Below are positions 11,277 to 16,374 of a stretch of DNA of 40,004 bases, piece after piece (positions within the stretch are counted from its first letter, which is position 1; each line of letters opens with the position of its first letter). Below the pieces are notes generated by a model. That model saw only the letters and a list, made by a program, of their open reading frames with translations. It was not told where the DNA came from and searched no databases. The position numbers and the translations under genes are program-made. The stretch lies in the IMG/VR virus record IMGVR_UViG_2645727669_000017; one strand, given 5' to 3'. Source of the stretch: a virus. Lineage: Duplodnaviria; Heunggongvirae; Uroviricota; Caudoviricetes.

Positions 11277-11497
11277 TCCGGAATATTTTCAAACGGTTTA
11301 CCAATCAGACTTTCCGTTGTCCTCGTCCGGGTCAGTGGTACACCACACCTGCAGGGCATGTTCTACGTGTTAGCCTGGTTGACCGTGAATGTCAGAAGGT
11401 GATTTGTGAACCGCTGGGCCGTAATTACCGCGTCAGTATGCCGCTTATAGCCTTTCGCTCCGGAAAAAACATGAAGCATCTCGGAGGTGCTGCATGA
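11273..11497 (+). CDS. Small hypothetical protein
   Basis: 74-aa ORF with ATGA overlap to the Rha stop and overlapping the next gene start. Confidence 0.35.
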   Translation: MIRNIFKRFTNQTFRCPRPGQWYTTPAGHVLRVSLVDRECQKVICEPLGRNYRVSMPLIAFRSGKNMKHLGGAA

Positions 11498-12312
11498 GTA
11501 TGGAGCTGATGGTTAAAGCGATGAAAATTCGAGTGGGTAATCCATTGCGAAAACTGGTTCTGATCAAGCTGGCTGATAATGCCAGCGATCAGGGGGAGTG
11601 CTGGCCCAGCTACCAGCATATTGCTGACCAGTGCGAGATTAGCAAACGTTCTGTGATGAATCATATTGCGGCCCTTTGTGAGTCCGGGCTGGTAAAAAAA
11701 GTCACCCGGAAAGGTGAAAAAGGTAACTCAAGTAATATCTATCTCCTTCATCTGGATGGTGCAGGAGATTCACTAGGGGGTAGTGCAAATAATTCACTAT
11801 CTGGCGCAGCAAATTCACCAGGTAGTGCAGGAGTTGCACCAGGGGGTAGTGCAGGAGATTCACCCAGAACCAGTCACTCTTTTGAACCAGTCAAAGAACC
11901 AGTCAATGAACCAATAGCTGTTGGTGCATCAGTTGATGAGTCTGTGCGAGTTCGTTCAAACCGACCGGAATACTCTCCGGAGTTTGAGCAGGCATGGCTG
12001 GCATATCCCAAACGTGCTGGTGGCAATTCAAAATCTGCAGCCTTCAAAGCCTGGAAAGCCCGTTTGAATGAGGGGGTAAACCCCGAAACCATGCTGGAAG
12101 GTGTGAAACGCTACGCGGGCTGGGTATCTGCGATGGGTAACAGCGGCACACAATTTGTGAAACAGGCTGTCACGTTCTTTGGTCCGGATCGTCATTTCGA
12201 AGAATCCTGGGAAGTTCCTGCGGTATCTGCAGCCAGACGTGAGGACCCGTACTTCAAAGCCAGTTACGACAACGTGGACTACAGCCAGATCCCGGCAGGA
12301 TTCAGGGGGTGA
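11494..12312 (+). CDS. Replication initiation protein (O-like, N-terminal winged HTH) with internal origin iterons
   Basis: 272-aa ORF; N-terminal HTH (SYQHIADQCEISKRSVMNHIAALCESGLVKK); Gly/Ser/Ala-rich repetitive linker encoded by direct DNA repeats; position after cro/cII. Confidence 0.65.
   Translation: MSMELMVKAMKIRVGNPLRKLVLIKLADNASDQGECWPSYQHIADQCEISKRSVMNHIAALCESGLVKKVTRKGEKGNSSNIYLLHLDGAGDSLGGSANNSLSGAANSPGSAGVAPGGSAGDSPRTSHSFEPVKEPVNEPIAVGASVDESVRVRSNRPEYSPEFEQAWLAYPKRAGGNSKSAAFKAWKARLNEGVNPETMLEGVKRYAGWVSAMGNSGTQFVKQAVTFFGPDRHFEESWEVPAVSAARREDPYFKASYDNVDYSQIPAGFRG
11759..11910. repeat. Iteron-like direct repeats inside the replication gene; candidate ori
   Basis: About four copies of GG(T/G)AGTGCAGGAG(A/T)T(T/G)CAC between 11759 and 11866, followed by three GAACCAGTC repeats (11866-11910). 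Confidence 0.5.
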
Positions 12313-12314
12313 TC

Positions 12315-12803
12315 ATGAGTCTTTTGAATGAAGTTCAGAAATACATTGAAGCCCATCCGGGGTGTACTTCCGGAGACATTGCGGATGCTTTTGCAGGTTA
12401 CTCACGGCAGCGCGTTCTGCAGTATGCAAGCAAGTTACGTCAGAGTGGGCGTGTGGCTCACCGTTGTGAAGGAGATACACGCAGACATTTCCCGCGCCTG
12501 ACTGAGAGAGCGCAGGAGCTGGAACCACAACCAGTTCGTGAAACCAGACCTGTGCGCAATTTCTATGTCGGCACTAACGACCCGCGGGTGATTTTGTGCC
12601 TGACCCGCCAGGCGGAAGAACTGGAGTCAAGGGGCTTATACCGTCGTGCTGCAACCGTGTGGATGGCGGCATTCCGTGAAAGCCACTCCCAGCCAGAACG
12701 AAACAATTTTCTGGCACGTCGTGAGCGGTGCTTACGGAAAAGCAGCAAGCGCGCTGCATCGGGTGAAGAGTGGTATCTGTCAGGGAATTACGTGGGGGCT
12801 TAA
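12315..12803 (+). CDS. PerC-family transcriptional regulator homologue with N-terminal winged-helix region
   Basis: PerC-like motif LESRGLYRRAATVWMAAF...RRERCLRK; ATG 12315 with AGGGGG RBS; TAATG overlap with the next gene. Confidence 0.5.
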   Translation: MSLLNEVQKYIEAHPGCTSGDIADAFAGYSRQRVLQYASKLRQSGRVAHRCEGDTRRHFPRLTERAQELEPQPVRETRPVRNFYVGTNDPRVILCLTRQAEELESRGLYRRAATVWMAAFRESHSQPERNNFLARRERCLRKSSKRAASGEEWYLSGNYVGA

Positions 12804-13456
12804 TGAGTAATAAATATTGCCGGGCGCTGGTGGAACTGCGGAACAAACCAGCCCATGAACTGAAGGAAGTGGGCGATCAGTGGCGCACGCCGGATAACAT
12901 TTTCTGGGGAATTAACACCCTGTTTGGCCCGTTTGTCCTGGATCTGTTTACTGACGGTGATAACGCCAAATGTACCGCGTATTACACGGCGGAAGACAAC
13001 GCGCTGGCGCATGACTGGTCAGAACGTCTTGCGGAGCTTAAAGGTGCTGCCTTTGGTAATCCCCCATACAGCCGCGCCAGTCAGCATGAGGGGCAATACA
13101 TCACCGGCATGCGTTACATCATGAAACATGCCAGTGCCATGCGTGATAAAGGCGGGCGCTATGTTTTCCTGATCAAAGCTGCCACCTGCGAAGTGTGGTG
13201 GCCGGAAGATGCAGATCATATTGCTTTTATTCGCGGGCGTATTGGTTTTGAACTGCCTGCCTGGTTTATCCCGAAAGATGAGAAGCAGGTGCCGACAGGC
13301 GCTTTCTTCGCTGGTGCTATTGCTGTTTTCGACAAGACCTGGAAGGGACCGGCAATCAGCTACATCGGGCGCGATGAACTTGAGGCATGTGGTGAGGCGT
13401 TTCTGGCGCAGGTTCGCCAGCAGGCAGAAAAACTGGTCAGGGAGATGGCGGCATGA
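12803..13456 (+). CDS. Phage DNA N6-adenine methyltransferase (Dam-like)
   Basis: NPPY catalytic motif (GNPPYS) within a ~217-aa product; start from TAATG overlap at 12803. Confidence 0.8.
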   Translation: MSNKYCRALVELRNKPAHELKEVGDQWRTPDNIFWGINTLFGPFVLDLFTDGDNAKCTAYYTAEDNALAHDWSERLAELKGAAFGNPPYSRASQHEGQYITGMRYIMKHASAMRDKGGRYVFLIKAATCEVWWPEDADHIAFIRGRIGFELPAWFIPKDEKQVPTGAFFAGAIAVFDKTWKGPAISYIGRDELEACGEAFLAQVRQQAEKLVREMAA

Positions 13457-15991: not shown

Positions 15992-16008
15992 TTTTGTGGA
16001 GAAAGTTG

Positions 16009-16374
16009 ATGCGTGATATTCAAATGGTTCTTGAACGTTGGGGGGCATGGGTGGCAAATAATCACGAGGATGTCACCTGGTCGTCTATTGCTGCAGGATT
16101 TAAAGGACTAATCCCTTCAAAAGTAAAATCCCGCCCGCAATGTTGTGACGATGACGCGATGATCATTTGTGGATGCATGGCTCGCCTGAAAAAGAACAAC
16201 AGCGATTTGCACGATTTATTAGTGGATTATTATGTAGGTGGTATGACTTTTATGGCGCTTGCCCGTAAACATGGGCGTTCTGATTGCTGGGTTGGGCGTT
16301 TATTGCAAAAGGCTGAAGGTGTAGTTGATGGCATGTTAATGATGTTAGAAATTGAGCTAGAGATGGATCGTTAG
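16009..16374 (+). CDS. Late-gene antiterminator Q (short Q family)
   Basis: ~121-aa product from internal ATG ([14 protein letters not shown]...) with Cys-rich zinc-binding core ([16 protein letters not shown]); last gene before the late region. Confidence 0.65.

Follow-up and report, generated by a model that had tools for sequence, protein, structure and literature searches.

The window, by which we mean the whole analysed stretch of 40,004 nucleotides of Caudoviricetes DNA, contains a run of lambdoid early genes. Among them, one small open reading frame (ORF) fills the slot between a replication gene and a DNA adenine methyltransferase gene. The features of this region are collected in Table 1.

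Table 1. Genes, protein segments and sequence signals in and around yfdN (positions refer to the window)
Feature	Position	Strand	Remarks
CII-like gene	9568		Pfam
Ash/Rha protein, 386 aa	10116-11276		PF10554 + PF09669; between CII-like and replication genes
Replication initiator, HTH_36/DnaD_N	11494-12312	+	TGA stop 2 nt before the yfdN ATG
Iteron-like direct repeats	11759-11863 (also 11867-11907)		inside the replication-initiator gene; 66-nt spacing
Shine-Dalgarno-like AGGGGGT	12300-12306	+	ends 8 nt 5′ of ATG 12315; within the final codons of the replication gene
yfdN-type CDS	12315-12803	+	ATG 12315, TAA 12801-12803; 162 aa; 96% identical to K-12 YfdN (b2357)
N-terminal winged helix, Ren-like	12315-12494	+	residues 1-60; three helices and a beta hairpin (model: 3-60)
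Linker, disordered and poorly conserved	12495-12581	+	residues 61-89; pLDDT <50 at 64-79
PerC/ANR three-helix module	12582-12743	+	residues 90-143; holds the motif of the initial annotation; pLDDT 94-97
C-terminal tail	12744-12800	+	conserved motif W153-x-L155-x-G157-x-Y159-V160-G161; structure low-confidence
Tail motif W-x-L-x-G-x-Y-V-G	12771-12797	+	residues 153-161
Phage Dam N6-adenine methyltransferase	12803-13456	+	PF05869; ATG overlaps the yfdN stop by 1 nt (TAATG)
LexA_DNA_bind-only protein, 108 aa	13453-13779		PF01726, E 2.9e-19; without peptidase domain
RusA	13776		Pfam
KilA-N	14152		Pfam
DUF968	14996		Pfam
Q	15994-16374		Pfam
Second DNA methyltransferase, 350 aa	17526-18578		downstream of Q; PADLOC MTase_II, E 3e-152

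Several neighbours deserve a comment of their own. The Ash/Rha protein is described in a related Stx2k phage record only as a 'peptidase'. The LexA-like protein is conserved 3′ of the methyltransferase in most related phages and, judging from its domain content, could occupy SOS boxes without being cleavable. The product of the second methyltransferase gene is annotated in related phages as a DNA adenine methylase; together with Dam it means that the prophage carries two orphan methylases. Further downstream, the late region resembles those of phages cdtI, mEp460 and PhiR40. Where related phages match this late region, their records annotate no stx genes; there are no tRNA genes.

We identify the ORF, from its sequence, as an orthologue of yfdN carried by a lambdoid prophage of the mEp460/SfV/CPS-53 type. 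Its product matches K-12 YfdN at 156 of 162 residues (E 2e-120) and falls into a 99%-identical cluster of 2,305 members. In RefSeq, the ORF is present in 2,668 of 5,426 complete E. coli genomes (about half), mostly under the name yfdN. The surrounding DNA is 98–99% identical to E. coli and Shigella lambdoid phages (phiSTEC1575-Stx2k, Stx2c phages, mEp460 and SfV), in whose records the ORF appears as 'PerC family transcriptional regulator' or as hypothetical. Phage orthologues occur in SfV (orf40), in mEp460 and in phiSTEC1575-Stx2k (gp24). Both the full-length identity and the slot between a replication gene and a methyltransferase gene of a lambdoid prophage place the ORF in the YfdN orthologous group. 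Beyond E. coli chromosomes, many Stx phages, SfV-like phages and Salmonella phages carry the gene.

The ATG at 12315 is favoured as the start codon over an in-frame GTG at 12309, because of the Shine-Dalgarno-like sequence upstream of it and because nearly all homologues begin with MSL. The predicted product is basic (pI 9.8). It matches the Pfam PerC family (PF06069) over residues 98–149 with an E value of 7.4e-9 and 36.2 bits against a gathering cut-off of 22.6, a similarity far beyond chance. Additionally, the whole protein matches PHROG 1324, 'transcriptional activator' (E 2.5e-76), and all 40 diverse YfdN-family homologues match Pfam PerC.

These results bear out the initial annotation, which had proposed from a motif that the ORF encodes a PerC-family homologue in the nin region. 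The motif is present, as GLYRRAATVWMAAF at residues 107–120 (nt 12633–12674) and RRERCLRK at residues 135–142. The profile search, which the annotation had itself named as a refuting test, was positive, and the alignment to PerC/Pch proteins that it had suggested gave 41% identity to PchA over 44 aa and 40% to PchE over 52 aa. The proposed location is also correct: the ORF lies between the replication gene and Q, in a region that we regard as nin-equivalent and that also holds the Dam, LexA_DNA_bind, RusA, KilA-N and DUF968 genes. What the annotation overlooked is that the ORF is simply yfdN. As worded, the PerC-family finding is already known, since the PGAP label reads 'yfdN: PerC family transcriptional regulator' and the K-12 gene has been called 'the K12 unique PerC homologue' (PMC5931665), even though the K-12 record gives 'uncharacterized protein YfdN' (bioRxiv 10.1101/2025.05.07.652715). 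The PerC-family call as stated thus adds nothing new and has modest value as a pointer.

The 48 distinct yfdN alleles found in 80 related viral contigs give a dN/dS of 0.07, which falls to 0.02 in the PerC domain. We therefore consider yfdN a functional gene. Truncated and fused variants do exist in databases, which could point to a chance ORF or a decaying pseudogene; against this stand the dN/dS value, the Pfam PerC match and an architecture that is kept across the family down to 25% identity. The selection and conservation data already refute the pseudogene reading, the chances of which are virtually nil. Two antisense ORFs (12313–12528 and 12574–12846) were rejected as spurious, as the selection pattern matches the plus frame. 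The related-locus search with the family alignment returned only loci at least 97% identical, and single distant queries returned 0–3 loci each; the contexts of distant lineages were taken from contigs that encode homologues.

A consensus scan of the plus strand detected neither sigma-70-like nor terminator-like sites between about 10.8 and 15.4 kb, with the reservation that a weak or activator-dependent promoter could escape such a simple scan. As yfdN has no promoter-like or terminator-like site nearby and abuts both of its neighbours, we place it on the early rightward transcript. Most likely yfdN belongs to the early lytic genes and is not a lysogenic-conversion gene driven by a promoter of its own; its product is expected to be made on induction and not in a stable lysogen. 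A published table of NO-responsive genes in the UPEC strain CFT073 includes yfdN among prophage genes (PMC5320621).

In all seven distant lineages in which the upstream gene could be identified (7/7), it was a replication gene whose stop codon overlaps or abuts the start of the YfdN-type gene. The replication modules in this position are of the HTH_36/Phg_2220_C or lambda P type. The replication-initiator gene of the window contains the iteron-like direct repeats GTGCAGGAGATTCAC...GGGGGTAGTGCA, which, by analogy with lambda ori inside gene O, are probably the phage origin.

An accessory replication factor that works with the initiator encoded immediately upstream would fit this linkage, the coupled start and stop codons and the iteron-like repeats lying 450–550 nt upstream within the replication gene; a fold search among viral structures also gave weak matches to the winged helices of replisome organizers and initiators. 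Nevertheless, YfdN-type genes follow unrelated modules (HTH_36/Phg_2220_C and lambda P), and the replication protein is 71–75% identical where YfdN is 30–35% identical, so that the divergence of YfdN does not follow that of the replication protein. Moreover, in some phages the methyltransferase gene comes straight after the replication gene and a YfdN-type gene is missing, and the PerC/ANR module is not known to take part in replication. We find an accessory replication role quite improbable. The narrower idea that YfdN replaces lambda P as a helicase loader was rejected, as a YfdN-type gene also follows a lambda-P-type gene.

An AlphaFold2 model of YfdN, built from a 40-sequence alignment (mean pLDDT 80.9), predicts a winged helix and a three-helix module joined by a flexible linker and followed by a tail (Table 1). 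Among distant homologues the linker shows a mean pairwise identity of 9%. In an exhaustive HMMER search, the two-domain architecture was still kept by family members of only 25–30% identity. The PerC model is matched over positions 5–56 of 90 only, and BLAST alignments to PchA and PchE end at residues 143–145. The tail motif, which comes after a low-confidence stretch, recurs across the two-domain family and also in some relatives with a short N-terminus.

A sequence search of solved structures returned only insignificant matches to ClpC N-domains (E > 0.2), which leaves the protein without a solved relative. In a Foldseek comparison of the full model with the BFVD viral structures no match reached an E value below 0.001 (best 1.0e-3); the matches were to generic winged helices and Ren was not recovered. 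Fold matches of both the three-helix and the winged-helix part are generic. Since the recognition helix of the winged helix is not conserved across the YfdN family, a common DNA target is unlikely. As modelled and aligned, the two-domain YfdN is not Pch-like and is built differently from the PerC/Pch virulence activators.

The gene that follows is also informative. In 12 of 14 lineage contexts, defined by YfdN-type proteins 25–49% identical to the window protein, it encodes a DNA methyltransferase, usually with an overlap of 1–4 nt; two of the 14 lineages have no adjoining methyltransferase. The adjoining adenine methyltransferases belong to three unrelated Pfam families, PF05869 Dam, PF05063 MT-A70 and PF02086 D12 (loci: window 12315–13456, L007, L008, L009, L092–L094, L097–L100, L102 and L103). 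YfdN-type alleles at least 95% identical to each other stand beside D12 in L092 and beside MT-A70 in L093 and L094. A YfdN-type ORF lies directly upstream in 57 of 80 MT-A70 loci; 21 of the 80 lack a YfdN-type gene within 2 kb, at least three of them with the methyltransferase directly behind the replication gene. In L007 (934–4224), the YfdN-type gene is followed by a 1,096-aa ORF that combines a C5 cytosine methylase, a PAPS_reduct-like part and a D12 adenine methylase.

This recurrent association, across three unrelated families and even for near-identical alleles with different neighbours, raises the idea that YfdN is a partner of the adjoining methyltransferase, either reading methylated DNA through its winged helix or regulating the timing of methylation. 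Some prokaryotic winged helices do sense 6mA (PMC11037411). The two YfdN lineages with no adjoining methyltransferase and the 21 MT-A70 loci with no YfdN-type gene speak against it and fit optional cassettes. In addition, the methyltransferases are 64–86% identical while YfdN is 21–40% identical, so the two do not co-vary, and a binding surface shared by three unrelated enzymes is unlikely. We give such a partnership little credence. An obligatory YfdN-methyltransferase pair was rejected outright, as the same two sets of loci break it. From the gene orders, the link looks like one of optional cassettes in a mosaic backbone.

In about 10 of the 80 close relatives, a 119-aa ORF that shares the start region of Dam replaces the Dam and LexA-like segment, and RusA starts 323 nt after yfdN (L026, L028, L036, L041, L062, L069, L071, L072, L080 and L086). 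Here the methylase region has, judging by the sequence, been deleted or fused repeatedly.

Comparison of the window (12315–12803) with L004, L008, L009, L092, L093, L097, L099, L100, L103 and L105–L184 revealed how variable the YfdN-type gene is relative to its surroundings. The conserved backbone that flanks it is 64–91% identical between loci (RusA 68–91%, methyltransferases of the same family 64–86%, replication protein up to 75%) and the LexA-like protein 40–66%, against 21–49% for the YfdN-type protein. At MT-A70 loci, the median identity is 86% for the methyltransferase and 40% for the YfdN-type protein encoded upstream, and the YfdN-type proteins form at least six deep clusters. Both domains diverge, with a mean identity of 25% in the winged helix and 35% in the PerC module. 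Despite the deep divergence between allelic types, purifying selection is strong within the E. coli yfdN allele. Deep allelic types in a fixed slot look like the pattern typical of lambdoid specificity or arms-race genes. The hypervariability thus makes a variable partner somewhat more likely than one target common to all.

The slot itself recalls that of ren. Lambda Ren is known for its Rex-exclusion phenotype. In Sakai Sp8, ren follows a lambda-type P gene with a 4-nt overlap, and in L007 a YfdN-type gene likewise follows a lambda-P-type gene; like members of the Ren family, yfdN lies immediately 3′ of a replication gene. The profile phrog_142, 'Ren-like exclusion protein', weakly matches YfdN residues 3–67 (E 0.0015). 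A profile of Ren homologues aligns with the YfdN-family profile over 62 columns, beginning at residue 1 in both (hhalign probability 84.5%, E 7e-6); for a single Ren sequence the probability is 16.6%. Our reading is that yfdN occupies the ren slot and that its product joins a winged helix, probably related by descent to that of Ren, to a PerC/ANR module.

Such a kinship would allow for a Ren-like role in counter-exclusion or counter-defence, in which YfdN would be a ren-slot cassette neutralising a host or resident-prophage factor, with the PerC/ANR module as its protein-binding part. The profile alignments, the shared slot and the low identity between conserved flanks, with each allele under purifying selection, all agree with it. 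However, winged-helix profile matches can be generic, the single Ren sequence gave a low probability, and Ren has no PerC module. PADLOC also gives no match for YfdN, although its library leaves out anti-defence genes. We regard a counter-exclusion role as rather unlikely.

A broader proposal, which we make with considerable reserve and hold to be doubtful, is that YfdN-type proteins form a distinct class, in which a Ren-related winged helix joined to a PerC/ANR protein-binding module would serve as a hypervariable specificity or arms-race effector of the ren slot. If this were true, YfdN would be an effector that is expressed early and neutralises some variable factor of the host or of a prophage; it would not be a generic transcription activator. 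Candidate targets would then be silencers of the H-NS family, exclusion systems or defences linked to methylation, and Ren, PerC/Pch and ANR proteins would be mechanistically linked. In any case, the architecture, the ren slot, the hypervariability and the methyltransferase neighbours provide concrete and cheap hypotheses for this y-gene.

PchA and PchE align to YfdN only across residues 94–145, and YfdN reaches the score threshold of the Pfam PerC family with no match to the whole 90-position model. NCBIfam NF033650 (ANR_neg_reg) scores 23.8 bits with the whole of YfdN and 24.5 with its C-terminal domain, both below the cut-off of 32; it is matched by 29 of 42 YfdN-family members (best E 6.3e-12). 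Taken from sequence comparison, PerC/ANR homology at the superfamily level is supported. The published ANR signature, A-x-h-E ... A-x-x-h-W-x-x-A, resembles the PerC motif (PMC4983702), and others have also drawn attention to the likeness of PerC and ANR proteins (PMC11773190).

Within the Pch group, PchA/B/C activate ler, an effect that is hardly seen with PchD and PchE (PMC5931665). Activation of LEE1 by Pch depends entirely on H-NS/StpA/Hha silencing and is accompanied by reduced H-NS occupancy; unpublished observations cited by the same authors reported no co-precipitation of PchA with H-NS (PMC4764244). PchE represses curli, csgD and flagella (PMC6265319, PMC7369912), and EcCIMP1_025, a PerC-family protein of a PICI, represses LEE1 (PMC11773190). 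The PerC family is not uniformly one of activators: LEE1 is activated, ignored or repressed depending on the member. As the effects differ so much, membership supports a 'modulator of nucleoprotein or regulator complexes', not a direction or a target. ANR proteins, for their part, bind AraC-family regulators and H-NS through protein-protein contacts (PMC4983702, PMC10148876). By analogy with these relatives, the description of YfdN as a modulator of nucleoprotein or regulator complexes is supported.

The initial annotation had suggested that the gene could mediate phage-to-host regulatory cross-talk, that is, act from the prophage in a lysogen as a Pch/PerC-like activator of host virulence or other regulons. 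Such cross-talk is plausible by analogy. It would be in keeping with PerC-family membership, with the 40–41% identity of the helical core to PchA and PchE and with the activation of ler by PchA/B/C (PMC5931665, PMC4764244); furthermore, the authors of one study took the precaution of deleting yfdN from MG1655 ahead of ler-lacZ assays (PMC5931665). Still, the suggestion rests on family membership, which predicts little, and it is weakened by the architecture and the operon position of yfdN. The protein is built differently and matches the PerC model over half of its length only, while the gene lies within the early operon with no promoter-like site, unlike pchA. Activation of LEE1 is not seen with PchD, PchE or PICI PerC-like proteins, and one of these represses it (PMC5931665, PMC11773190). 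In the literature we found no reported effect of yfdN on ler. The chance that YfdN is a Pch-like host activator appears slim to us, and its architecture and context caution against the labels 'LEE activator' and 'transcriptional activator'.

The explanation that we prefer, with chances we would set somewhat below even, is that YfdN is an early-expressed protein in which a winged helix and a PerC/ANR module together remodel H-NS-type or regulator complexes. The gene would be transcribed from the early rightward promoter (pR) on induction or infection; in decayed prophages that lack repressor control, its expression might be constitutive. The PerC/ANR module would act as a protein or nucleoprotein interaction unit, as suggested by its characterised relatives: Pch proteins relieve silencing by H-NS/StpA/Hha, and ANR proteins bind H-NS and AraC-type activators. 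The winged helix, a putative DNA-binding domain, may tether this module to DNA. The likely result would be that silenced or regulator-bound DNA is remodelled in favour of early phage development, and side effects could arise on H-NS-silenced host genes or horizontally acquired genes. Overexpression of yfdN from the ASKA collection led to a glycogen-excess phenotype (PMC2853380), which indicates that YfdN can affect host physiology. Our literature search found no experiment on any YfdN-type protein.

Of the known systems, the closest is K-12 YfdN, an orthologue of the window gene that sits in the cryptic prophage CPS-53/KpLE1. It has equivalent neighbours, yfdO (a replication remnant) upstream and yfdM (a methyltransferase remnant) downstream. 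There the flanking genes are truncated remnants, whereas the operon is intact in the window; otherwise the two differ in nothing substantial.

Lambda Ren (about 96–100 aa) resembles the YfdN winged helix at the profile level only, with 18% identity, and has no PerC/ANR module. The ANR proteins Aar and Rnr share a three-helix module with a signature closely like that of YfdN. They are single-domain proteins of less than 10 kDa that accompany AraC-family genes, whereas YfdN has 162 aa and is encoded beside a phage replication gene; Pfam analysis of its neighbours in the window found no adjoining AraC-family gene.

PchD, PchE and the PICI PerC-like proteins are, like YfdN, PerC members carried by mobile elements, but they have a single domain and no winged helix. 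PchE was rejected as the equivalent of YfdN in O157 Sakai, as it has a single domain, is 90 aa long and is encoded by Sp7, an untypable prophage. The pchA gene lies apart from the early operon and adjoins an IS629 copy, in contrast to yfdN, which is an early-operon gene. PchA (104 aa) and PchE (90 aa) each consist of a single domain with the PerC core at the N-terminus. Single-domain PerC/Pch proteins range from 89 to 104 aa, and YfdN, at 162 aa, falls outside the family size of about 90–105 aa. PerC of the EPEC pEAF plasmid and PchA/B/C of EHEC prophages share with YfdN the three-helix core and the signature A-x-x-L-E-x-x-G-[LF]-Y-R-R-A-A-x-x-W ... R-x-x-C-L-R-K. Compared with them, YfdN has an additional 60-aa winged helix and a linker in front of this core and, in place of PerC model positions 57–90, a conserved tail of its own.
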